DNA from: Longimicrobiales bacterium
GTDB taxonomy: Bacteria; Gemmatimonadota; Gemmatimonadetes; Longimicrobiales; Gaopeijiaceae
DNA: 64,000 nt
Direction of reading: 5' to 3'
Assembly: GCA_041690395.1 (NCBI GenBank)
Contig: JAWLHJ010000005.1
Coordinates: forward strand, 288,001-352,000
Made by a program: the position numbers and the translations under genes. The notes below the pieces were generated by a model, which saw nothing but the letters and a program-made list of their open reading frames with translations, was not told the origin of the DNA and did not search any database. Below, piece after piece: positions 1 through 47,401 of the stretch (position 1 is the first letter of the stretch; the number at the start of each line of letters is the position of its first letter).

Positions 1-968
1 GCGAGGCCCATCTCGGGAACTATCTGGGAGCGCTGCGCCGCTGGGTCGAGATGCAGGACGAGCACGACTGCGTCTTCTGCATCGTGGACGATCACGCGAT
101 CACGGCCGGCGGCGATCCCGCGGACATGCCGAAGAACGTCTTCGACCTCGCGGTCTCGTTCCTCGCGGTGGGGCTCGATCCGGAGAAGGCGATCATCTTC
201 GTCCAGTCCGACGTGCACGAGCACACCGAGCTGGCGTGGCTCTTCAACGCGGTCACGCCGGTGGGCGATCTCGAGCGGATGACGCAGTACAAGGACAAGT
301 CGCAGCAGTTCGACTCGATTCCGGCCGGCATCCTGAACTACCCGATCCTTCAGGCCGCGGACATCCTGCTCTACAAGGCCGACGCGGTGCCGGTGGGCGA
401 GGACCAGCGACAGCACCTCGAGCTCACCCGCGAGATCGCGCGCAAGTTCAACGCGCGCTACGGCGAGACGTTCCCCGAGACCGACGCAATCATCGACAAG
501 GACGTCGGGCGGATCATGGGGCTCGACGGCGAGGCCAAGATGAGCAAGTCGCTCGGCAACACGGTCGGGATCCTCGCGGAGCCCGACGAGATCTGGGCGC
601 GGGTCCGCACCGCCGTGACCGATCCGCAGCGCGTGCGGCGTGACGATCCGGGGCGTCCTGAAGTGTGCAACGTGTTCTCGCTGCATCGGTTCTTCGCGGA
701 CGCGGAACAGCTCGAGGACATCGCCACCCAGTGCCGAGGCGCCACGCGGGGGTGTGTGGACTGCAAGAGGATCCTCGCAGAAAACATCGCCGACGCATTC
801 GCCCCGTTCCGGGAGCGGGCGGCCGAGTACCGCGCCAATCCGGGCGAAGTACGGCGAATCCTCGACGAGGGCGCGGTTCGTGCAAGAGCCATCGCCGAGA
901 CGACCATGACCGAGGTGCGTGAGCGCATGGGACTCGACTGGCGCGCCGCCATCGGCCGGGAGGGCTGA
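1..968 (+). CDS. trpS: Tryptophanyl-tRNA synthetase (5' end outside window)
   Basis: The frame from nt 3 reads EAHLGNYLGA (HIGH motif). It also contains YPILQAADILLY, VPVGEDQRQHLEL and the KMSKS motif. Confidence 0.97.
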   Translation, partial: EAHLGNYLGALRRWVEMQDEHDCVFCIVDDHAITAGGDPADMPKNVFDLAVSFLAVGLDPEKAIIFVQSDVHEHTELAWLFNAVTPVGDLERMTQYKDKSQQFDSIPAGILNYPILQAADILLYKADAVPVGEDQRQHLELTREIARKFNARYGETFPETDAIIDKDVGRIMGLDGEAKMSKSLGNTVGILAEPDEIWARVRTAVTDPQRVRRDDPGRPEVCNVFSLHRFFADAEQLEDIATQCRGATRGCVDCKRILAENIADAFAPFRERAAEYRANPGEVRRILDEGAVRARAIAETTMTEVRERMGLDWRAAIGREG

Positions 969-1091
969 CCCGGCGGACGGCGACGCCCTTCAAGCGCGGC
1001 TCCCCCCCGGCCGCTAACTTCCCGAGAGTGGAAGGGTGTTGAGCGAGTGGGTGGCAACACCTTTCTGAAGAGTCAGCGGAGGAGGATTTGC

Positions 1092-2225
1092 ATGCAGGAG
1101 CTGTTCAGAGCGGCCGTCGAGCGCGGCGCGAGCGACATCCACATCAAGGCCGGCGACTTCATTCGTGCTCGGGTGAACGGTGATCTCCAGACGCTGACCC
1201 AGCAGAAGCTCACCGTCGACCAGGTGAAGGGCATCGCGCTGCAGCTGATCCCGCACGAGGAGGACCGGCAGAACTTCGACCGCCTCCTCGACTACGATTG
1301 CTCCTGGGGTATCCCCGGCGTCGGTCGGTTCCGCGTGAACATCATGAAGCAGCGCGGCTCGCCCATGATCGTCATGCGCGCGATCCCCATCGACATCCCG
1401 ACGGTCGAGGACCTGGGACTTCCGCCGGTCATCAACCGGATCGCGGCCACGCGGCGCGGGATGATCCTGGTGACGGGCATCACGGGGTCGGGTAAGAGCT
1501 CCACGATGGCGGCCATGATCAACTGGATGAACATGAACCGCCGGCTGCACATCGTCACGCTCGAGAATCCGATCGAGTTCCTGCACCGGGACAACCTGTC
1601 GTCCATCACGCAGCGGGACATCGGCACCGATACCGAGTCGTTCGAGAGCGGCCTCCGCTCGGTGCTCCGTCAGGATCCCGACGTCATCCTGATCGGTGAG
1701 ATGCGGGACAAGATCACGATCGAGACGGCGCTCAAGGCGGCCGAGACGGGTCACCTGGTGATCTCCACGCTGCACACGAAGAACGCGGTGCAGACCATCT
1801 CGCGCATCATCGCCGTCTTCGATCCGAACGAGCAGGAGATGATCCGCGTGCGGCTTTCCGAGTCGATCCAGGCGGTCATCTCGCAGCGCCTCGTGCAGCG
1901 CAAGAACGGGGGGCGCGTGGCGGCCATGGAGATCATGCCCGTGACGTCGACGATCCGGGACTGTATCCGCGACCCGCACCGGATGGAGGAGATCTTCGAC
2001 CTGATCGAGGAGGGGCGCGAGCACTACGGGTCGCAGACCTTCGACCAGCACCTCATGGACCTGGTGAAGGGCGGAACGGTAGACTTCGAGGTCGCCAAGG
2101 CCGCGGCGAACAACCCGGCCGACTTCGACCTCAAGATGAACATGCTGGGCGACGCTGGTGGGGGTCGCAACGTGCCCGGAACGACCGGGCTCGCCGACGA
2201 AATGTCCAAGATGGCCGGAGGCTGA
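1092..2225 (+). CDS. pilT: PilT/PilU family type IV pilus retraction ATPase
   Basis: ASDIHIKAG, Walker A GITGSGKSST, LRQDPDVILIGEMRD, AAETGHLVISTLHT, GSQTFDQHL. GGAGG RBS before ATG 1092. Confidence 0.9.
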   Translation: MQELFRAAVERGASDIHIKAGDFIRARVNGDLQTLTQQKLTVDQVKGIALQLIPHEEDRQNFDRLLDYDCSWGIPGVGRFRVNIMKQRGSPMIVMRAIPIDIPTVEDLGLPPVINRIAATRRGMILVTGITGSGKSSTMAAMINWMNMNRRLHIVTLENPIEFLHRDNLSSITQRDIGTDTESFESGLRSVLRQDPDVILIGEMRDKITIETALKAAETGHLVISTLHTKNAVQTISRIIAVFDPNEQEMIRVRLSESIQAVISQRLVQRKNGGRVAAMEIMPVTSTIRDCIRDPHRMEEIFDLIEEGREHYGSQTFDQHLMDLVKGGTVDFEVAKAAANNPADFDLKMNMLGDAGGGRNVPGTTGLADEMSKMAGG

Positions 2226-35215: not shown

Positions 35216-37861
35216 TCACTCCTCCCGCAGCACCGCAGCCGGATCCACCCGCGCCGCGCCGACGGCCGGCACCAGACACGCGACGCCCGAGACGGCCACG
35301 AGCAGCACCGCGGCTGCCGCCAACGCCAGCGGATCGCGCGGCTCGACCTCGTAGAGCAGCGCGGAGAGGCCACCCGTCAGCGGCAGGGTGGCCAGGAGGC
35401 CGACGGCGAGCCCCGCGAGCGTGAGCCGGAGCCCCTGCCAGACCGTGCGGCCGATCACCGAGCCGGGTGCGCCGCCCAGGGCGAGCCGGACGGCGATGTC
35501 GGACCGCCTGCGCTGCACGAAGTGCGCGGTGATGCCGTACAGACCGATGACCGCCAGGGCGAGCGCGACCGCGGAGAAGGTGCCGAGCAGGAGGGACAGA
35601 TGGCGCGGGCGGGTGAACGAGTCGTGTAGGAGGCTCGCACCCGTGGCCATGGAGACGATGGGCACCGAGGGGTCGGTCTGCCGGAGCGCCTCACGAACTG
35701 CCGAGGCCGCCGTCCCGGGATCGCCGGAGGTCCGGACGATGAGCCAGGCGTTGACCAGCCCCGCGCGCGTCGGCTCGTACATGGCGCCGAGCGGGCTCGT
35801 GCCCACCCCCTGGTACGGGACGGTCGAGGCCACGCCGACGATGGTCGTTCGCGGCCCGGACGTCCGGCCTCCGGCGTACAAACGGCGGCCCACCGGGCTC
35901 TCTCCCGGATAGTGGAGGCGCGCCCAGACCTCGTCCACGACGACCACGGGGGGCGCCCCCTCGTCGAGATCACCGGCCCCGAAGCCGCGCCCTTCGACGA
36001 TCGGGATCCCCATGACGTCGAAGTACGAGCGGTCGACGGTGATCCAGGGAGCCACCGGCTCCGACTCTCCGGCCGGAGGGGGCCGGTCCTCGAGCCGGAA
36101 GTTGTTGACGTTGCCGACATCGTCCGGGGGGCGCTCGCTCGACAGGGTCACGCCGGCGACCCCGGGGATGGCCGCCAGGCTCGAGATGGCCGGCTCCCAG
36201 AAGTCCGCCCGACGCCCCCCGTTCGCGTAACGCGTGGGGCCCAGCGCGACGTTCACCATGAGGAGCTCCTCGGCGGCGTAACCCGGCTCGACGTCCTGGA
36301 GCTTGGCGAAGCTCGCCAGGAGGAGCGTGGTGCCGACCAAGAGCGGCGTGACGACGGCGAGCTGTCCGGCCACGAGCAGGCGCTGGGTGCGCTGCTGCGA
36401 GCGTCCGTCCGTCGACGAGCGGCCGCCCGAGCGGAGGTCCGCGCCCAGGTGGACGTCCTTCCGTCCGTGGATCGCCGGGACGATCGCGAACAGGAACGTG
36501 GCCATGCCGGCCAGCCCGGACGCGAATGCGACCGTGTACCCTCCGAGCGTGGCCTCCCCGGCCCGGGGGAGCCAATCTCCCGCGACCACGGGCAGCGCGC
36601 GGATGCCGACGTAGGCCGACGCCAGGCCCAGCGCGCCGCCGAGCCCCGCGAGCCAGGCGCTCTCCGCCGCGAGGTGCCACCAGATGCGCCCGTCGGAGGC
36701 CCCGAGCGCGCGCCGAACGGCCATCTCGCGGGCTCGCGACCCGAATCGGGCGAGCAGGAGGTTGACCGCGTTGGTGACGGCGATCAGCAACATGAGCCCC
36801 ACGGCTCCCATCAGTACGCCGAGTAGCGGTCCGGCCTCACCGCGCGCATAGGCGGTGACGTCCTCGAGGCCCCAGCTTGCCCTCCGGTCCTGGTAGCTGT
36901 CGGCCCAGAGGGGAAACAGCTCCTCGTTCAGCGCGCGCAGCTCCGTCCGAGCCGCGGCGGGCTCCACGCCCGGAGCCAGGCGGCCGAACACGGTCAGGAA
37001 GAACGGGCCCTTACGCGATGGCGGCTCGAGCCGCAGCGTCGGCACGATCTCGCTGCCGCGGGCGAGAGGCCCGAGGTCCGGGGGCAGGATGCCGATGACC
37101 TCCCAGGGCTGGTCGTCGAGCGTCAGGGTGCGGCCGATGGCGTCCGCCGGCGTCGCCACGCCCATCCGGCGCTCGGCGAACCCGGCGGTGACCATGACCG
37201 TGGCCGGTGCGTCCGGAGCGCCCTCCGCCCGGGTGGGCGTCCGGCCCCAGCGCGGCGCGAGACCCCAGGTCTCGAGCAGGCCGGGCGTCGCCTCGACGAC
37301 GCGCATCAGCTCCACCCCGCCATCGCCGGCGAGGGCCCGCGACGCGTTTCGGTAGGCGCCCACGCGCTCGAACGAAGTCTGTCGCGCCTCGAGCGCCTGG
37401 AAGTCGACGACGGAGAAGGGGAAGCGGTTCGGCGGAGCGTCGGTGTAGATCCGCGCGACCCGGTCGGCGTCGGGGTAGGGCAGCGGGCTCAGGTAGAGGG
37501 CCTCCACCATGGAAAAGACGACGGCGCAGCCCGCGATCCCCAGGGCGAGGGTGGCGACGATCGTCAGGGAGAGCACCGGGGATGACGCCAGGCCCCGCCC
37601 GGCGCGTCGAAGCTCACCGTCCCCGCCTCCCGGGAGGCGGGCGGTCGCGCGCACACGTCGCAGCGCGAGCAGGACCGGGTAGCGTCGGAGCTGCCGCAGG
37701 TAGCGTCGGTCGGCCTCGGGCACGCCGTGCCGCGCCGCGACGGCCGCGTGCAGCTCCGCGAGCTCGGCCAGGACGAGCCGACGCTCCCGCTCGTCGATGA
37801 GCCTGGCGAGCGCCCAGGCGATCGGGCCGGGGACCGGGGGCGGCGATCCTGGCCCGCTCAT
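35216..37861 (-). CDS. ADOP-type duplicated ABC permease
   Basis: TLALGIAG, LLIAVTNAVNLLL, REMAVRRALGA, AVRLALG, ends VDPAAVLREE. ATGA overlap with the PadR stop. Confidence 0.9.
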   Translation of the reverse strand: MSGPGSPPPVPGPIAWALARLIDERERRLVLAELAELHAAVAARHGVPEADRRYLRQLRRYPVLLALRRVRATARLPGGGDGELRRAGRGLASSPVLSLTIVATLALGIAGCAVVFSMVEALYLSPLPYPDADRVARIYTDAPPNRFPFSVVDFQALEARQTSFERVGAYRNASRALAGDGGVELMRVVEATPGLLETWGLAPRWGRTPTRAEGAPDAPATVMVTAGFAERRMGVATPADAIGRTLTLDDQPWEVIGILPPDLGPLARGSEIVPTLRLEPPSRKGPFFLTVFGRLAPGVEPAAARTELRALNEELFPLWADSYQDRRASWGLEDVTAYARGEAGPLLGVLMGAVGLMLLIAVTNAVNLLLARFGSRAREMAVRRALGASDGRIWWHLAAESAWLAGLGGALGLASAYVGIRALPVVAGDWLPRAGEATLGGYTVAFASGLAGMATFLFAIVPAIHGRKDVHLGADLRSGGRSSTDGRSQQRTQRLLVAGQLAVVTPLLVGTTLLLASFAKLQDVEPGYAAEELLMVNVALGPTRYANGGRRADFWEPAISSLAAIPGVAGVTLSSERPPDDVGNVNNFRLEDRPPPAGESEPVAPWITVDRSYFDVMGIPIVEGRGFGAGDLDEGAPPVVVVDEVWARLHYPGESPVGRRLYAGGRTSGPRTTIVGVASTVPYQGVGTSPLGAMYEPTRAGLVNAWLIVRTSGDPGTAASAVREALRQTDPSVPIVSMATGASLLHDSFTRPRHLSLLLGTFSAVALALAVIGLYGITAHFVQRRRSDIAVRLALGGAPGSVIGRTVWQGLRLTLAGLAVGLLATLPLTGGLSALLYEVEPRDPLALAAAAVLLVAVSGVACLVPAVGAARVDPAAVLREE

Positions 37862-38187
37862 GCTTCCTCCGCGACCCCGTCGAGCCCCTCCCAGAAGCGC
37901 TCGAAGGTTCGGCGGGTCTCCCGGAGCTTCTCGAGGCCTTCGGGGGTCACGCGGAACCACCGCCGCTCCCGCCCGGTCTCGGTCTCGGACGCGGCCTCCA
38001 TCCGCGACCGGACGAGCCCCTTCTCTTCCAGCCGGCAGAGCGCGATGTAGACCGCCGCCTGAGATATCTCGCGTCCGCCGCGCTCCTCGAGCTCGAGGAC
38101 CATGGGCACGCTGTACGATTCTCCGCCCAACTGGAGGATCGTCAGCATCACCTGCTGCTCGAACTCACCCAATCCACGTCGTCCCAA
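37858..38187 (-). CDS. PadR family transcriptional regulator
   Basis: LGEFEQQVMLTIL, AAVYIALCRLEEKGLV, RRWFRVT. Confidence 0.9.
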   Translation of the reverse strand: MGRRGLGEFEQQVMLTILQLGGESYSVPMVLELEERGGREISQAAVYIALCRLEEKGLVRSRMEAASETETGRERRWFRVTPEGLEKLRETRRTFERFWEGLDGVAEEA

Positions 38188-38300: not shown

Positions 38301-39848
38301 TCACCCGCCGAAGAGTCTCGGCAGGATGAGCGTCCCGGCCAGCGTCACGACGATGACTGCGACCAGGTTCACCCACAGCCCCACCCGCACCATCTGACCG
38401 ATGGTGACGTAGCCGGAGCTGAACACGATGGCGTTCGGCGGCGTGCCGGCGGGCATCATGAACGCCATGGAGCAGGCGATGGCGGTCGAGGCCATGAGCG
38501 CGACCGGCGGGATGCCCAGCGTGATCGCGATGCCGGCCGTGATGGGCATGGCCATGGCCGTGACGGCCGTGTTGGAGGTGATCTCCGTGAGGAAGACGAA
38601 GAGGGCCACGGTCGCACCGATCACGACGATCGCCGGCGCGCCGGCGAGCGCGGCCACGCTTCCTCCGATCCACTCCGCGAGCCCACTCGAGGACATGCCC
38701 AGCGCCAGGCTGAGCCCACCACCGAACAGCAGCAGCACGCCCCAGGGAATCTGCGAGGCGGTCCGCCAATCGAGCGCGACCGAGCCCGACCGCCAGTCCA
38801 GAGGCCACGCGAAGAGTGCCAGGGCGGCCAGCATGGCTATGGTGGCGTCGGTGACCTCCGGGAAGAGCATGGTGAGGCCGGGCAGGGTCACGAAGCCCAG
38901 ATCCTTAGGCACGCGGGCCATCCAGGCGGCCACGGTCAGGAGGAAGACCAGGGTCACGTACCGCTCCCCTCGGGACGCGGGCCCGAGTGAGGCACGCTCG
39001 GCCGCGAGGAGCTCGGCGGGATCGCCGGCCGGTGTCTCGGGCGGGTAGAGCACGACGAGGGCCAACCAGGAGAGGGGAAGGAGCAGTCCCGCTACCGGAA
39101 GCCCGACGGCCAGCCACTCCAGGAAGCCGATCTCGATGCCGAGCAGCTCGGACGCGGCGGCGGCGAAGAGCGCGTTGGGTGCCGTCCCGATGAGCGTCGC
39201 GACGCCGCCGATGGAGGAGGCGTACGCGATGCCGAGCATGAGCGCGACGCCGAAGTTGTACGAGCGCCGAGGGTCGCCGTGAGCCGCCTCGGCCTGAGCG
39301 GGCGTCCGGGCCGGCTCGAACATCCGCCCCAGCGCCGTCGCGATCGGGAGCATCATGGCGGCCGTCGCCGTGTTGTTGATCCACATCGAGACGAAGGCGG
39401 TCGCGAACATGAAGCCGAACAGGAGCTTGCGCGGGCTCGTGCCGGTGCGGCTCATGACCGCGAGGGCGAACCGGCGGTGCACCCCCCAACGCTCCATCGC
39501 CCCGGCGAGGAAGAAGCTTCCCATGAAGAGGAAGATGATCTCGTTGGCGTACGGGGTGGCCGCCTCCTGCATCGTCGTGATGCCGAGGAGCGGGAAGAGC
39601 ACGAGGGGGAGGAGCGCGGTGGCGGAGATGGGCACCGCCTCCGTGAGCCACCAGCTCCCCATGAGCGCCAGGACCGCGGCCACCTTCCATGCCACCGGAG
39701 AGAGCGGGGCCGGCGGCGGGATGACGAGCAGGAGGAGGAACAGGGTCACGCCGAGCACGAGCCCGATCCGGCGCGCGGGACTGACCGCCGGGGGCACGAG
39801 TCCGCTCGGCGGCGTCCCGCCCGTCTTTGCCTTCGGTCCGACCGTCAT
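38301..39848 (-). CDS. DASS/SLC13 family dicarboxylate or sulfate:cation symporter
   Basis: WWLTEAVP, SMWINNTATAAMMLP, SIGGVATLIGTAPN, TEITSNTA, AFMMPAGTPPNAIV. Confidence 0.93.
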   Translation of the reverse strand: MTVGPKAKTGGTPPSGLVPPAVSPARRIGLVLGVTLFLLLLVIPPPAPLSPVAWKVAAVLALMGSWWLTEAVPISATALLPLVLFPLLGITTMQEAATPYANEIIFLFMGSFFLAGAMERWGVHRRFALAVMSRTGTSPRKLLFGFMFATAFVSMWINNTATAAMMLPIATALGRMFEPARTPAQAEAAHGDPRRSYNFGVALMLGIAYASSIGGVATLIGTAPNALFAAAASELLGIEIGFLEWLAVGLPVAGLLLPLSWLALVVLYPPETPAGDPAELLAAERASLGPASRGERYVTLVFLLTVAAWMARVPKDLGFVTLPGLTMLFPEVTDATIAMLAALALFAWPLDWRSGSVALDWRTASQIPWGVLLLFGGGLSLALGMSSSGLAEWIGGSVAALAGAPAIVVIGATVALFVFLTEITSNTAVTAMAMPITAGIAITLGIPPVALMASTAIACSMAFMMPAGTPPNAIVFSSGYVTIGQMVRVGLWVNLVAVIVVTLAGTLILPRLFGG

Positions 39849-40224
39849 GACCGCGGCTCCAGCGCGTTGGCGATCACCGACGCCAGGATGCCGACGGCCA
39901 GGATGCCCGCAACCATGGCCAGGCTGAATCCGGCCGGGATCGAGTCGATGGCGAACATGACGTCCGACGACTCGACCATGAGGAGCACCAGGAAGAGCGG
40001 CGTGGCGTGCCGGACCCCGTCCCGCGTCGTGAAGAATCGTGCGCCGTCGAACTCTGTCGTCACCGGCATCCAGCGGCGAGCCAACCGGTACGCGAGGTTA
40101 CCCTCGGGCCACGCGAGCGCCGTCCGCATGGGAATGACGTGCGGGCGGCGGTTGAACACGCCCAGGTCGAGGGCGAGGAGGAGCAGGATGACGAGGACGA
40201 ACCCGCTCCACACGAGCGTGGTCG

Positions 40225-40228
<4 letters not shown>
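39845..40228 (-). pseudogene. TerC/Alx family gene with two in-frame internal deletions (127 aa)
   Basis: TerC N-terminus LALDLGVFNRRPHV, central PVTTEFDGARFF...ATPLFLVL...DVMFAIDSIPA and the final TM helix are joined directly. Confidence 0.75.
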
Positions 40229-41565
<1,337 letters not shown>

Positions 41566-41616
41566 GAGGGGGAGGGTGTCGGAGGAAATGATGACGAGGA
41601 AGGAGGGCGGCGCGAG

Positions 41617-41646
41617 GGCCTCCGCCCCCGAGCGGGGACGGAGGCC
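41617..41646 (-). terminator. GC-rich hairpin after small-protein copy B
   Basis: Minus strand GGCCTCCGTCCCC-gctc-GGGGGCGGAGGCC, followed by a pyrimidine-rich tract. Confidence 0.45.
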
Positions 41647-41661
41647 TTCTCGGGCCGTGGA

Positions 41662-41856
41662 TCACACGGGGGTCTTGGTCCCGCCCCCGCGGGGCCGGCC
41701 GAACCACAGCACGGCGATCGCGGACGCCACGATCAGGATCAGCGCGAAGATCGACGCCGGGTCACGTGGAAGGGACTGGAGGACTTCGTTGCCGGTGAGG
41801 CCGTCGTCGGCGCTCTGCAGCGCGAGGATGGCTGGAAGAAGAATCTGGGTCGTCAT
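41662..41856 (-). CDS. Small single-TM membrane protein, copy B (64 aa)
   Basis: LQSADDGLTG...LPRDPASIFALILIV...VLWFGRPRGGGT. Strong SD GGGAGGGG. Paralog at 42485-42694. Confidence 0.8.
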   Translation of the reverse strand: MTTQILLPAILALQSADDGLTGNEVLQSLPRDPASIFALILIVASAIAVLWFGRPRGGGTKTPV

Positions 41857-41957
41857 GGTACACCCCTCCCGGGGGTGGTCGGACTACGGTTCTGAGCAGG
41901 CCCCGCGGGAATTCGTGGGGCGCGGAATCTCGGGAGCGGCCGTGTGGCCACTCGTGC

Positions 41958-42320
41958 TCAGGCGTGGGGAGGGGCGTTGGCAGGTGCTGCGTGGAGGCCC
42001 AGGAGCGACGCGCTCGACCGGACCGGCTCGAGCTCCGGCGTGCTCGGCCCTTGGACTCCGTGTGCGGGCGACGTGGGGCGCGGTGAGGCGCGTCCACCGG
42101 AGCGACGGGCACGCGGCGGGGATGATGCGTCCCCGGCATGCAGGGTGGCGGTCCAGGCAGACGTGGGCACCACGACGGCAGTGCTTCCGTCCTGCAGGGC
42201 GACGCCCGGCCCGACGTCGGGTCCCGTGCGGGTCGACGGCTCCGGGTACGACAGAGCCCCGACGCATACGATGAAAAGCGTCAGGGCCAACCAGCGAGCC
42301 CGCTTCACGGCCTCGCGCAT
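41958..42320 (-). CDS. Signal-peptide leader ORF ending LLGLHAAPANAPPHA (candidate arrest peptide), copy B
   Basis: N-terminal basic plus hydrophobic segment, low-complexity linker, and a C-terminus conserved with 42784-43146. Confidence 0.7.
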   Translation of the reverse strand: MREAVKRARWLALTLFIVCVGALSYPEPSTRTGPDVGPGVALQDGSTAVVVPTSAWTATLHAGDASSPPRARRSGGRASPRPTSPAHGVQGPSTPELEPVRSSASLLGLHAAPANAPPHA

Positions 42321-42484
42321 CGTTCGCTACCTGCCTGTAGTCGCCTCCGTCGCGGCGGTTCGGACGAGCCGCTGCAACGGACCTGCGGGAAATTTAGCGT
42401 GCCGGGGGTCCGACAAGAAGATCCCCCGCACCCCCGCGAAGGCCCCCGCCCCCGGGAAGGGACGGGGGGCTCGCGTGCGGGTAG

Positions 42485-42694
42485 TCAGCTCGCTCTGTCC
42501 TGCGCGCCGCGGCTCGCGGTTCCGCCGCCGCGCGGCCGCCCGAACCAGAGCACGGCTCCGGCGCCCACCACGATCAACAGGAGTGCGAAGATCGAGACCG
42601 GGTCGCGGGGAAGGCCCTGGATGATCTCGCTTCCGGTGAGGCCTTCATCGGCGCTCTGGAGTGCCACGAGGGCCGGCAGTATGTACGTCGTCAT
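42485..42694 (-). CDS. Small single-TM membrane protein, copy A (69 aa)
   Basis: MTTYILPALVALQSADEGLTGSEIIQGLPRDPVSIFALLLIV...VLWFGRPRGGGT. Same SD as copy B. Confidence 0.8.
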   Translation of the reverse strand: MTTYILPALVALQSADEGLTGSEIIQGLPRDPVSIFALLLIVVGAGAVLWFGRPRGGGTASRGAQDRAS

Positions 42695-42783
42695 TGGATA
42701 CACCCCTCCCTGGGGTCGACAGTCTGAAGAGGGCCACGGGAACCGTGGCCCGAGTACGTCCGGCGCGGCCGTAGGCCGCGGGC

Positions 42784-43146
42784 TCAGACGTGGGGAGGGG
42801 CGTTCGCGGGTGCGGCCAGAAGGCCCAGGAGCGCGGCGCCTGACCGGATGACGAGGAGGTCGGGGTTGCTGGGACCCCGGAGCAGGGCTCCCGCGCGGAG
42901 CTGCGGGTGCCGACCCGCCCGGCCGGTATGGCGCTCGGGCGTGGGCGAGGACGAGTCCCCGGATTCCGCGGCACTGGCCCACGTGGAGGTGGGTGCCGCG
43001 GTGCTGGGGACGCCGCCCTGCAGGACGAGCCTCGCCCCGCCGTCCGGCCCGGGAAGGGCGGACGGTGTCGGGAACGCGAGAGCCCCCGCGCCGATGAGGA
43101 GGAGCGCCAGGGCCGTCCCGCGAGTCCGCATCAGGGTCTCGCGCAT
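42784..43146 (-). CDS. Signal-peptide leader ORF ending LLGLLAAPANAPPHV (candidate arrest peptide), copy A
   Basis: MRETLMRTRGTALALLLIGAGALAFP...; 120 aa, the same length as copy B. Confidence 0.7.
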   Translation of the reverse strand: MRETLMRTRGTALALLLIGAGALAFPTPSALPGPDGGARLVLQGGVPSTAAPTSTWASAAESGDSSSPTPERHTGRAGRHPQLRAGALLRGPSNPDLLVIRSGAALLGLLAAPANAPPHV

Positions 43147-43295
43147 CGGCTGTGTCCTGCGACGGGTCACGAATGCCCGGCCACGCCGTTCGGCCGCGGC
43201 AATCGTCGAAAGCTAGCTCGTCCGTTCCGGGTGACGAAGCCCCGGGGGTGGCGGACCGCAGTGGCGGTGCCGGCCCCCCGGGGCGGCCCGGGTGT

Positions 43296-44319: not shown

Positions 44320-44661
44320 ATGACACCCACGCCCATGGGCCCCGTGCAGGGCACGCTGGAGCTGCTCGTCCTCAAGTCGCTCGCGACCGGGGGCGAGATG
44401 CACGGCTTCGGGATCCTCGACTGGATGCGCCGCACCACGGGCGAGGAGATCGTCGTGGAGGACGGCGCGCTCTACCACGCGCTGCACCGGATGAAGAAGC
44501 GTGGGTGGGTGAGCGCCGAGTGGGGCGTCTCGGACAAGGGACGCCGGGCCCGCTACTACGGGCTCACCGACAAGGGACGGGCCGCGCTCGCCGAGGAGGA
44601 GGCGCGTTGGTCGAGATACGTGGCGGCGGTCGCCCGCATCACCGGAGCGGAGCCCGCGTGA
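44320..44661 (+). CDS. PadR family transcriptional regulator (acidobacterial-type)
   Basis: QGTLELLVLKSL, HGFGI, GALYHALHRM, WGVSDKGRRARYY. Confidence 0.93.
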   Translation: MTPTPMGPVQGTLELLVLKSLATGGEMHGFGILDWMRRTTGEEIVVEDGALYHALHRMKKRGWVSAEWGVSDKGRRARYYGLTDKGRAALAEEEARWSRYVAAVARITGAEPA

Positions 44662-44674
44662 CGAGGGGAAGTTC

Positions 44675-47401
44675 GTGATACGTCTGTCGCGGATTCGCGA
44701 AGTGCTCGGGGCGATCGTGCGGCGCTTCGACCCGTCGGACGACGTCGACGAGGAGATCCGGCATCACCTGGAGGAGATGGTGGACGCGCTCCGGGCGGAG
44801 GGCCTGCCGCGCGAGCGGGCGCGGCGCGAGGCGGAGCGGCGTTTCGGGAGCGTGCGACGGCATCGGGATGCGTTGGTGCGGTTGAACCGGAGGGGGGAGA
44901 CGATGCGGAGGGGACTGGAGACGGCACGGCGCGTGTGGGGCGAGGTGAGGCAGGCGGCGCGGGGGCTCGCGCGAAATCCCGGATTCTCGCTGGGTGTGCT
45001 CGCGACGCTCGGGCTCGGCATCGGGGTGAACGGGGCCATGTTCGCGGTGACGGACCGGCTGCTGCTGCGTGCGCCGGATCACATCGAGCGCCCGGACGAG
45101 GTGCGTCGGGTTCTCACGCTCCGCAGCAGATTCGACGCTCCCTCCTACGGGGCTTCGATGACGTATCCGGACCTCGACGACCTTCGGACGGTGGGTGAGT
45201 TCACCGCCGCTGCCGGCTACTCGGGTCCACGCACCAGGACCCTGGGCGAAGGCGCCGAGGCGATGCGCGTGGAGACCGTCGGGGCGAGCCACGACTTCTT
45301 CACGCTGCTCGGAGTCGGTCCGGCCCTGGGACGCTTTCCGTCGCCTGAGGACGACGAGGTCGAGGCCGCCCCCACGGCCGTGCTGGACTGGGACTTCTGG
45401 CAGCGGAGCTTCGGTGGAACGCCCGACGTCCTGGGCACGTCCATCGAGATCGACGGGGTCGCCTACACGGTCATCGGGGTGACGCCCCGGGGCTTCACCG
45501 GCGTCGACATGAGTCGGGTGGACGTGTGGATCCCGCTCGTTCCGTACGGGATGCTGCAGTGGGGCCGGTACGACTTCCATGAGAGTCGCGGCTTCTGGTG
45601 GATGCGCCTCATCGTCCGCGCCGAGGATGATGCGCGACTGGCGGCCGCGGAGGAAGCCACGACGGCCCTGCACCGGAACGCCCGGCAGGAGGAGATCGAG
45701 ACCGGGCGCTACGACCCCGACGCACGCATCGTGACGGCTCCGCTCATCGCGGCGCGGGGGCCACTGGCGTCGGACGAGTCGCGGGTCGCGCTCTGGCTGT
45801 CGGGCGTGGCCCTGTTGGTGCTGCTGATCGCGTGCGCGAACGTGGCCAACCTGCTGCTGGCCCGCGGTGAGCAGCGCAGGCGAGAGGAGGCCGTGCGGCT
45901 CTCTCTGGGCATCTCCCGCGCGGGGCTCCTGCGGGGAGCCATGCTCGAGGCCCTGATCCTGGCGGGCGCGGGCGGCGTGCTCGCGCTCGGGCTCGCGCAT
46001 TGGGGCGCGGTCGTCATCCGGGACACCCTGATGCCCGACGTCTACTGGGCCGGGTCGGCGGTGGATGCCCGTCTGGCGGGGTTCATGGCGGGCGTGGCCA
46101 TGGTCGCCGGCCTCGTCGCGGGGATCGGGCCGGCGCTCCGGAGCGCTCGTGCGGACGTGGCCGTGCAGCTCCAGAACGGCGGGCGGGGCAATGCCGGCCG
46201 TCGCTCGCGCCTCCGGAACGGCCTCGCGGTGGCCCAGGTCGCACTCTCCGTCGTGCTGCTGGTGGGGGCCGGCCTGTTCGTCCGCAGCCTGGCCGAAGTG
46301 CGCGGCCTCGACCTGGGAGTCGACGTCGATCGGCTGGCCGTCGTCCGGCTCGAGGTCGATGGAACCGCATCGATGTTCGGTCAGGAGACGGAGGAGGAAC
46401 GAGTGGCGAACACCGCCCTCTACGAGGAGGCGACGCGCATCGCCCGGGAGGCGGACGGGGTGGCCTCCGTCTCGCTTACCATGTCGCCGTTCGGATGGGC
46501 GTTCTCCGCCGGGATCCGGGTGCCTGGGCTCGACTCGATTCCCGATCTCCCCGGCGGCGGTCCGTATTACGTGGGTGCCGACGAGCACTACCTGTCCACG
46601 CTCGGTATCGAGGTGCTGAGAGGCCGCGGCCTCGAGGCCGCCGATCGAGCCGAGGGAACCCACGTGGCGGTCATCAGCGAGACCATGGCGCGCACGCTGT
46701 GGCCGCGTGAGGACGCGCTCGGCAAGTGCTTCTACCACGGAGAGGAGGAGGACACGCCGTGCACGACGGTCGTTGGCGTGGCCGAGGACGTCACTCGCGG
46801 GTCTCTACAGGAGGAGGCACACATGGCTTACTACGTGCCTCTCACCGTGGATGGCCCCGCACCGCGCGGGATGTACGTGCGGACTACGTCGGACGACGCG
46901 GCGGCCGTCGCCTCGGCGCTGGCGCGTCCGCTGCGCTCGTTCTCGCCCCGCGTGCGCTACGCGTCCGTCGAGACGCTCCGTGACGCGCTGGATCCCCAGG
47001 CGCGCGCCTGGTCCCTCGGCGCGACGCTCTTCTCGGCGTTCGGGGTGCTGGCGCTGCTGGTGGCGGTCGTCGGGCTCTACAGCCTACTCGCGTTCGACGT
47101 CGCCGACCGCACCCGGGAGCTGGGCATCCGGTCGGCGTTGGGCGCCAGCAAGCAGGGGCTACTCCGCGGCGTCGTGGTTCGCGGCGTCGGGCTCGCCGTG
47201 GCGGGCGTGGCTCTCGGCTCGACGGTTGCCCTGTGGCTGGCGCCCAGAGTGGAGGACCTCCTCTTCGGCGTCGCCGCGCGCGATCCGCTCGTCCTCACGA
47301 CCGTGGCTGTCGTGCTCGTTGGGGCCGGCGCGCTCGCGTCCTGGGTGCCGGGCATGAGGGCCACGAGTGTCGATCCGATGGAGGCGTTGCGGTCGGAGTG
47401 A
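44675..47401 (+). CDS. ADOP-type duplicated ABC permease with permease-prefix domain
   Basis: DVDEEIRHHLE...AERRFG, LGLGIGVNGAMF, LLIACANVANLLL, RELGIRSALGA, VDPMEALRSE. Confidence 0.92.
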   Translation: MIRLSRIREVLGAIVRRFDPSDDVDEEIRHHLEEMVDALRAEGLPRERARREAERRFGSVRRHRDALVRLNRRGETMRRGLETARRVWGEVRQAARGLARNPGFSLGVLATLGLGIGVNGAMFAVTDRLLLRAPDHIERPDEVRRVLTLRSRFDAPSYGASMTYPDLDDLRTVGEFTAAAGYSGPRTRTLGEGAEAMRVETVGASHDFFTLLGVGPALGRFPSPEDDEVEAAPTAVLDWDFWQRSFGGTPDVLGTSIEIDGVAYTVIGVTPRGFTGVDMSRVDVWIPLVPYGMLQWGRYDFHESRGFWWMRLIVRAEDDARLAAAEEATTALHRNARQEEIETGRYDPDARIVTAPLIAARGPLASDESRVALWLSGVALLVLLIACANVANLLLARGEQRRREEAVRLSLGISRAGLLRGAMLEALILAGAGGVLALGLAHWGAVVIRDTLMPDVYWAGSAVDARLAGFMAGVAMVAGLVAGIGPALRSARADVAVQLQNGGRGNAGRRSRLRNGLAVAQVALSVVLLVGAGLFVRSLAEVRGLDLGVDVDRLAVVRLEVDGTASMFGQETEEERVANTALYEEATRIAREADGVASVSLTMSPFGWAFSAGIRVPGLDSIPDLPGGGPYYVGADEHYLSTLGIEVLRGRGLEAADRAEGTHVAVISETMARTLWPREDALGKCFYHGEEEDTPCTTVVGVAEDVTRGSLQEEAHMAYYVPLTVDGPAPRGMYVRTTSDDAAAVASALARPLRSFSPRVRYASVETLRDALDPQARAWSLGATLFSAFGVLALLVAVVGLYSLLAFDVADRTRELGIRSALGASKQGLLRGVVVRGVGLAVAGVALGSTVALWLAPRVEDLLFGVAARDPLVLTTVAVVLVGAGALASWVPGMRATSVDPMEALRSE

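Follow-up and report, generated by a model that had tools for sequence, protein, structure and literature searches.

A tandemly duplicated leader/small membrane protein module of a Longimicrobiales bacterium: a candidate export-monitoring switch with a non-arginine di-proline motif

We analyzed a 64,000-nucleotide (nt) stretch of contig JAWLHJ010000005.1 of a Longimicrobiales bacterium (phylum Gemmatimonadota), referred to below as the window. Two modules, each consisting of a leader open reading frame (ORF) of 120 amino acids (aa) and a gene for a single-pass membrane protein of 64–69 aa, are encoded on its minus strand between positions 41662 and 43146, as the initial annotation had reported. 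Both leaders end with an N-A-P-P motif. According to RNA models, the Pro-Pro codons of this motif double as an anti-Shine–Dalgarno sequence for the small gene, which is a new finding of this analysis. We propose, with a probability of about 0.6, that each copy is an export-monitoring stall switch, which would exert translational ON control of the small protein as in SecM and CutF, though with a motif devoid of arginine.

Occurrence and conservation of the module

Leader ORF 1 (42784..43146, minus strand) encodes a basic n-region, a hydrophobic signal-like segment, a divergent linker, and a conserved tail of NAPP plus two residues; leader ORF 2 (41958..42320, minus strand) has the same layout and ending. 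The two leaders are 47.5% identical and share the end LLGLxAAPANAPPH(V/A). The genes of small proteins 1 (42485..42694, minus strand; 69 aa) and 2 (41662..41856, minus strand; 64 aa) start 89 nt and 101 nt, respectively, after the leader stop, and their products share 77% identity across 60 aa. These two copies are the only ones in the 4.3 Mb genome. The modules are approximately 64% identical at the DNA level, yet copy 1 is 82% identical to the copy of genome G002, with which it groups in the tree (support 96/86); the tandem duplication is therefore not recent. No Pfam match at E ≤ 5 was obtained for any of the four proteins, in agreement with the earlier view that neither belongs to a described family, and nothing came close to the gathering score in Rfam.

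The small protein was present in 67 of 301 genomes of the family. It was also detected in 15 of 61 relatives (one of the 15 being a false frame) and in 14 of 401 genomes of the phylum, which belonged to the same family, one sister family, and, in one genome, a third family; it was not found in the two largest other families of the phylum (0/166 and 0/95 genomes searched). A leader was defined as an ORF that ended 45–170 nt upstream of the small gene, contained a hydrophobic segment some 100–150 aa before its stop, and carried xAPP or xPPP within its last 14 residues. In total, 72 small genes were kept, and the 70 with at least 600 nt upstream were counted, two being dropped. Rows L014/G014 (frame of a response regulator), G273, and G205 (false match, contig edge) were excluded, and genome G037 stands in the denominators only and supports no positive claim.

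By this rule, a leader was encoded upstream of 56 of the 70 small genes versus 2 of 1,217 ordinary control genes of the window's genome, an association that greatly exceeds chance. Every locus with a hydrophobic upstream ORF (56/56) also had the di-proline motif. The layout of signal, linker, and C-terminal proline motif, which had been likened to that of export-monitoring peptides, is thus found well outside the window, and the check in related genomes that had been suggested gave a positive result. All five loci from two other families had a leader (four TAPP, one RPPP). The reverse search with a leader profile revealed two new genomes, both with a small gene about 90 nt downstream; five new loci were inspected, three weak ones proving not to be leaders. 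When the NAPP tail was searched for as a codon pattern, 13 matches were obtained in 185,579 genomes. All eight of those in Gemmatimonadota were leaders with the stop two codons past Pro-Pro and the small gene next, although these had been counted above and so add no independent cases; the remaining five matches were not signal-bearing leaders.

The motifs of the 56 leaders were TAPP (21), NAPP (16), RPPP (9), LPPP (6), RAPP (2), HAPP (1), and IPPP (1). The NAPP variant proposed in the initial annotation is therefore real, but it stands beside several other motifs and is outnumbered by TAPP. In the 40 xAPP leaders, the first position was occupied by Thr in 21, Asn in 16 (including the window copies), Arg in two, and His in one. 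The stop follows two or three codons past NAP-Pro in all 16 NAPP leaders. A basic n-region with a hydrophobic segment, as judged by hydropathy only, was identified in 52 of 56 leaders, and the distance from the signal to the first Pro had a median of 111 aa (quartiles 106–118).

The consensus of the tail was L-x-G-(L/R/F)-x-A-(H/A)-P-(A/S)-(T/N)-A-P-P. APP was invariant among the 40 xAPP leaders, of which 38 had Pro at −2, 26 had Gly at −7, and 26 had Leu at −9. The ratio of nonsynonymous to synonymous polymorphism (pN/pS) for codons −3 to 0 was 0.13 in genus g1 (8 loci) and 0.30 in genus g17 (18 loci), ranging from 0.13 to 0.35 across four genera, while in the diverged linker it was about 1. 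The tail of the leader is under protein-level selection, and the leader ORF is conserved, as the annotation had assumed.

The motif codons and the Shine–Dalgarno region

For each of the two window copies, an 11-bp helix is predicted between the N-A-P-P codons and the Shine–Dalgarno (SD) region of the small gene. The anti-SD of leader 1 (42793..42803, minus strand), in which the first Pro is encoded by the rare CCT, pairs with the SD region of small gene 1 (42700..42710, minus strand) with a predicted probability of 1.00; the opening energy is 19.5 kcal/mol for the free RNA and 10.3 kcal/mol with the ribosome footprint masked. The corresponding elements of copy 2 are located at 41967..41977 and 41860..41870 (minus strand), with a predicted pairing probability of 1.00 and opening energies of 21.1 and 13.3 kcal/mol. 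The relief is thus 9.2 and 7.9 kcal/mol in the two copies.

The findings were similar for the whole set of 56 loci. The SD was predicted to be paired in 52 of them and paired with the motif codons in 35. With a footprint masked at the first Pro, opening the ribosome-binding site required on average 5.2 kcal/mol less (9.2 instead of 14.4), and the relief was at least 3 kcal/mol in 37 loci. In 150 control genes, the mean opening energy was 9.6 kcal/mol, the mean relief was 0.0, and a relief of at least 3 kcal/mol occurred in nine. Seven further loci had relief values of 5.7, 2.6, 7.1, 10.3, 5.7, 6.4, and 0.1 kcal/mol (at least 3 in five of seven); a metagenome scan yielded three loci, one of them usable. 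All these values are predictions on GC-rich RNA of related genomes.

Codon usage and covariation were also analyzed. The first Pro is encoded by CCT in 31 of the 40 xAPP leaders versus 3.7% of Pro codons genome-wide. None of 5,000 within-genus shuffles gave motif–SD duplexes as strong as the cognate ones. The fixed CTCC/GGAG pairing served as an anchor in 38 of 56 loci (18 could not be anchored); here, covariation was seen at the four bases inward of it (0.47 vs. 0.35; reached by 0 of 3,000 within-genus shuffles), but neither past these four nor on the helix's outer side. Control of the small gene by the leader, as initially annotated, is consistent with this predicted RNA switch, but not in the form of transcription attenuation: the predicted control is translational sequestration of the SD, in which the stall would mean ON.

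Interpretation and alternative explanations

The module most resembles the RAPP-like (RQH) arrest peptides ApdA, ApdP, and uDF_RQH_Enterobacterales, as well as SecM, in which, as described, an N-terminal signal and a variable linker are followed by xAPP near the C-terminus, a few codons ahead of the stop, and the downstream SD is hidden in a helix (PMC10987492, PMC12992588, PMC10951233). The two RAPP leaders and the HAPP leader at orthologous loci here add to the likeness and speak in favor of the stall switch. The differences are that Asn or Thr occupies the position of the Arg described as irreplaceable in these papers, that an LxG..P[AS] context is added, and that the target is a small membrane protein here and secA, secDF, or yidC there. 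The uDF_NAP-stop peptides of Bacteroidota also have N-A-P at the stall site, where Asn is important, and uA_LPPP of Planctomycetota shares its motif with six of our 56 leaders (PMC10987492). As described there, however, NAP-stop has a required stop directly after NAP and lies upstream of secDF, whereas in our leaders a Pro follows NAP; both systems belong to other phyla with other targets, and the likeness is one of motif.

In the DUF2946 leaders CutF and CruR, a signal and a C-terminal proline motif control a non-Sec gene (PMC9973294, bioRxiv 2025.02.05.636593, PMC9426467), and in CutF an SD-shielding stem-loop is opened. CruR, in contrast, is reported to act via Rho termination, and neither a CxxC/CxxxC motif (0/56 leaders) nor a copper or TonB-receptor target was found in our set. 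The window leaders did not match PF11162 (DUF2946); one of 57 relatives reached 23.6 bits, the cut-off being 23.7. Judged by sequence, the module thus falls outside strict RQH membership, because of Asn/Thr and the non-Sec target, and outside DUF2946 and NAP-stop. In the ESM Atlas, the nearest named clusters to leader 1 were SecM (0.78) and SecM_small (0.77), which is below the level that shuffled proteins often reach.

The kind of system is already known, since RAPP leaders upstream of many gene types are presented in PMC12992588. We failed to find a prior description of an arrest peptide from Gemmatimonadota or Longimicrobiales, or of a TAPP or NAPP motif, in the literature searched, which did not include most subscription papers. 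NAPP is absent from the main text of PMC12992588 and PMC10987492, and the NAPP and TAPP rows among the matches listed from their supplements were incidental; the two RAPP-bearing orthologues could be present in those lists unnoticed. Earlier surveys, keyed on R/Q/H-APP motifs or on a position before sec or yidC genes, would miss such leaders. The module is widespread in this lineage of Gemmatimonadota, and we regard it as a real regulatory module. At a single orthologous locus, its motifs provide a natural series (RAPP, HAPP, NAPP, TAPP, RPPP, LPPP), which makes stalling without the supposedly essential Arg directly testable.

In the proposed mechanism, the leader would enter Sec export during its own synthesis. 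If export were slow, the ribosome would linger with Pro in the P and A sites and cover the anti-SD, so that the small gene, plus any coupled transporter, could be translated. Under the pull of normal export, the ribosome would finish the leader, and the helix would re-form. In a subset of genomes, the small gene may relay translation to a transporter via overlapping stop and start codons. The conserved residues up to −9 could provide contacts in the tunnel. QAPP, HAPP, LPPP, and NAP-stop are all reported to stall ribosomes, and Asn matters in the last of these (PMC10987492).

Several points weigh against this mechanism, and the chemistry of arrest without Arg is its main weakness. The arrest of ApcA, ApdA, and ApdP is weakened when the motif Arg is replaced, by all 19 substitutions in the case of ApcA (PMC12992588), and Arg is described as making most contacts to the peptidyl-transferase center (PMC10951233); NAPP and TAPP must therefore rely on upstream context. 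In Escherichia coli, Thr before PPP is reported to suppress stalling (PMC4176338). The proteome of the window's genome avoids RAPP (10 vs. 24.5 expected) but not TAPP (32 vs. 22.7), and its avoidance of NAPP is doubtful (2 vs. 6.1, P 0.057). Because the target lies outside the Sec, SecDF, and YidC genes, a feedback logic is not evident. Unlike in the pattern that the initial annotation would have taken as support, the proline motif is not always found upstream of the small protein: 14 of the 70 small genes (in G275, G285, G244, G238, G052, G135, G160, and others) lack a leader, so the small gene can be used without leader control. Masking the footprint left the SD predominantly unpaired in no more than 4 of 56 loci, the relief was below 3 kcal/mol in 19 of 56, and it was just 0.1 kcal/mol in the further locus L210. 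Finally, all P-values exaggerate the significance because related genomes are not independent.

Among the alternatives, we considered the same RNA switch reporting the cytoplasmic state (EF-P activity, Mg2+/m1G37, or proline supply) through an ordinary di-proline pause dependent on EF-P or tRNA-Pro, as in MgtL, with export being secondary. All 56 leaders end with APP or PPP, and APP is an EF-P staller whose effect depends on context (PMC4176338); CCT CCC predominates among the codons, this being the m1G37-dependent kind of the mgtA leader (PMC6335274), and ion transporters are encoded nearby. Such a pause, however, needs neither a conserved signal nor a narrow signal-to-motif distance, and SD pairing already explains the CCT bias; we consider it rather unlikely. 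The absence of a regulated stall, Pro-Pro being a by-product of a C-rich anti-SD and the helix being opened by any passing or terminating ribosome (plain translational coupling), appears less probable still. CCTCCC indeed both encodes Pro-Pro and pairs with the SD, Arg is absent from the motif, and synonymous changes are few in the APP codons of g1 (pS 0.08). Nevertheless, the frame reads Pro-Pro in all 56 leaders, including nine xAPP leaders without CCT, residues up to −9 are conserved despite synonymous changes, and the signal peptide at a fixed distance would be left unexplained.

A periplasmic ligand sensor of the CutF/CruR type, in which a ligand bound to the exported linker would alter the pulling force, shares its layout and SD hairpin with CutF; the TerC neighbors hint at metals, and the single near-cut-off DUF2946 score among the 57 leaders scanned points in the same direction. 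We regard it as improbable given that the linker has no conserved ligand residues, 27 leaders have no Cys after residue 25, and the CxxC/CxxxC motif is missing throughout. Type I toxins often occur in tandem, and the small gene is tandemly duplicated. If its product were a depolarizing peptide of this type, it would be silenced by SD sequestration and released under stress; like many type I toxins, it is small, single-pass, and SD-sequestered (PMC12648545). The apolar helix in 119 of 131 members, the small genes devoid of any leader, and the stop overlapping or abutting the start of the next gene, mostly a transporter gene, in 10 of 30 loci all speak against this explanation and make it very improbable.

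The small protein and the neighboring genes

When 1.84 billion representatives were searched with a profile of the small protein, 310 matches were obtained at E ≤ 0.001 (clusters at 50% identity). Among the 150 matches listed of these 310, all were 142 aa or shorter except for three repeat proteins; the latter, together with longer N- or C-extended matches, were excluded from alignment A3. The family consensus is GLT..E...LPxDPAS(I/L)F, followed by the apolar helix and WxGR. None of the 131 members has a net positive charge on the N side, and 113 have a basic C side, on which grounds an N-out/C-in topology is predicted. The AlphaFold model contained three helices (predicted TM-score 0.43); in small protein 2, helices are predicted at residues 6–18, 22–28, and 33–53 (mean predicted local distance difference test score 77.9).

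Foldseek with this model gave no matches. In Pfam, the commonest match among members was FixQ (4 of 134 members, E 0.042), and the sequence search of the PDB gave nothing significant (best E 0.11). Identity with TatA was rejected on the basis of the PDB sequence E value of 1.7 and the lack of an amphipathic helix after the membrane helix. Known small membrane families (TatA, FixQ, MgtS, and type I toxins) had no profile or structure match, while the ESM Atlas returned only unnamed clusters at up to 0.85, which are weak leads. This conserved unnamed protein is a likely stress-induced factor of an abundant, mostly uncultured phylum.

Of 71 loci analyzed for the next gene, 30 had it within 200 nt on the same strand and 25 in convergent orientation; in the other 16, it was distant or not seen. 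The same-strand gene encoded a polytopic protein in 20 of 30 loci versus 183 of 2,001 operon-internal genes of the window's genome. These 20 loci, from nine genera, comprised DAACS (5), APC (5), TerC (5), K+/H+ antiporter (3), lactate permease (1), and one unassigned protein; a leader was present in 15 of them. The next gene overlapped the stop of the small gene or lay within 20 nt of it in the 10 of 30 loci mentioned above (by rough start calls), among which the window entry is an open-frame artefact, as its ATG is 96 nt away. NSS symporters followed DAACS or APC genes in four genomes and cation-chloride cotransporters were found in two, among 41 wider loci chosen partly for such neighbors. 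In the first 17 loci, the flanks looked unconserved; the larger sample showed the transporter link. Five of the 14 small genes lacking a leader directly precede DAACS or TerC.

The link to the DAACS/TerC/DASS genes suggested in the initial annotation is therefore real as an enrichment in ion-coupled transporters, but these are not a fixed target. The small protein is the constant target, because the transporter family varies by genome and the module is the last element of the operon in 25 of 71 loci. DAACS as a fixed target was rejected: among 26 loci with a DAACS homologue, no convincing small gene of this family was found directly upstream, two faint matches having E values of 0.03 and 0.07. 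In locus L136 (G048:C54, ~515–1354, plus strand), the gene after a paralogous TAPP leader of this type is another small one, acidic and lipoprotein-like, so other small targets can also be served by the leader family; next comes a DAACS homologue close to that of the window (66% identity).

MgtS, AcrZ, and KdpF are likewise small single-pass proteins acting on transporters (PMC12648545) and serve here as an analogy for the target, although they have no sequence match to our protein, and the family of the neighboring transporter varies between our genomes. By this analogy, we tentatively suggest, at less than even odds, that the small protein may be an accessory or assembly helper for ion-coupled secondary transporters, a role that fits its topology and neighbors. 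An alkaline or ion-motive-force trigger would fit the neighbors as well, but this is speculation. The most far-reaching version, which we consider doubtful, would be a Gemmatimonadota-specific class of export- or ion-motive-force-monitoring arrest peptides without the canonical Arg, in which the same six bases would encode the arrest prolines and form the anti-SD, and the output, a new small membrane protein acting as a general assembly factor or modulator for unrelated families of ion-coupled transporters (DAACS, APC, NSS, CPA1, TerC), would connect secretion stress to ion homeostasis.

Promoter-like −10 elements (TAnnnT) were predicted by a motif scan upstream of the leader starts at 43210..43215 (copy 1) and 42391..42396 (copy 2), both on the minus strand; a scan for sigma-70 promoters found none. 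TAnnnT was located within 130 nt upstream of the leader start in 35 of 56 loci (20.7 expected from shuffles) and 9–15 nt before it in 15 loci, the leaders of which may have leaderless transcripts. A GC-rich 3′ hairpin with a weak T-containing tail follows small gene 1 (42435..42471, minus strand; z −1.93) and is a candidate terminator or stabilizer. A stronger GC-rich hairpin without a U tract follows small gene 2 (41611..41647, minus strand; z −4.36; equally stable in 0 of 200 shuffles). The scan for intrinsic terminators gave one match versus 0.5 expected, which does not establish termination after either copy.

Downstream of copy 2, the minus strand encodes a DAACS (SDF) symporter (40225..41565; PF00375, E 1.5e-117), a possible secondary target with no visible SD. 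It is followed by a terC remnant of 127 aa (39845..40228; Pfam), which has an in-frame internal deletion and overlaps both neighbors with its start and stop (ATGA), and by a DASS (sodium:sulfate symporter family) transporter (38301..39848; PF00939, E 5.9e-73), the last gene of this adjacent operon. As the hairpin before it has no U tract, the DAACS gene may be co-transcribed, and read-through from small gene 2 into the transporter genes is possible. The terC remnant was the sole terC-like match in the genome (one query used). In loci L003/L097 (G002:C21), the DAACS–terC–DASS block appears deleted, with a stretch resembling the DASS 3′ end directly after the hairpin. Between positions 41565 and 41661 (minus strand), the DAACS frame continues that of small gene 2 across the TGA; 32 codons are open, and the ATG is not preceded by an SD. 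This shared frame is probably due to chance. The region is flanked by pairs of PadR-like and large ABC-permease (ADOP-like) genes (35216–38187 and 44320–47401), and ADOP permeases are the usual convergent neighbor in genus g17.

In the predicted proteome of the window's genome (G000), LAPP (21 vs. 42.8 expected), LPPP (20 vs. 39.4), and LGPP (12 vs. 22.8) occur at about half the expected number, like RAPP and RGPP. Two other leaders were found in this genome on the plus strand: one in C1 (stop near 582782) ends with RAPP and contains Cys and His, and one in C3 (stop near 581678) ends with QAPP and contains CxxxC. Each precedes a gene for a secreted protein of 750–770 aa resembling a TonB-dependent receptor, and both leaders are likely metal sensors of the CruR/CutF type.

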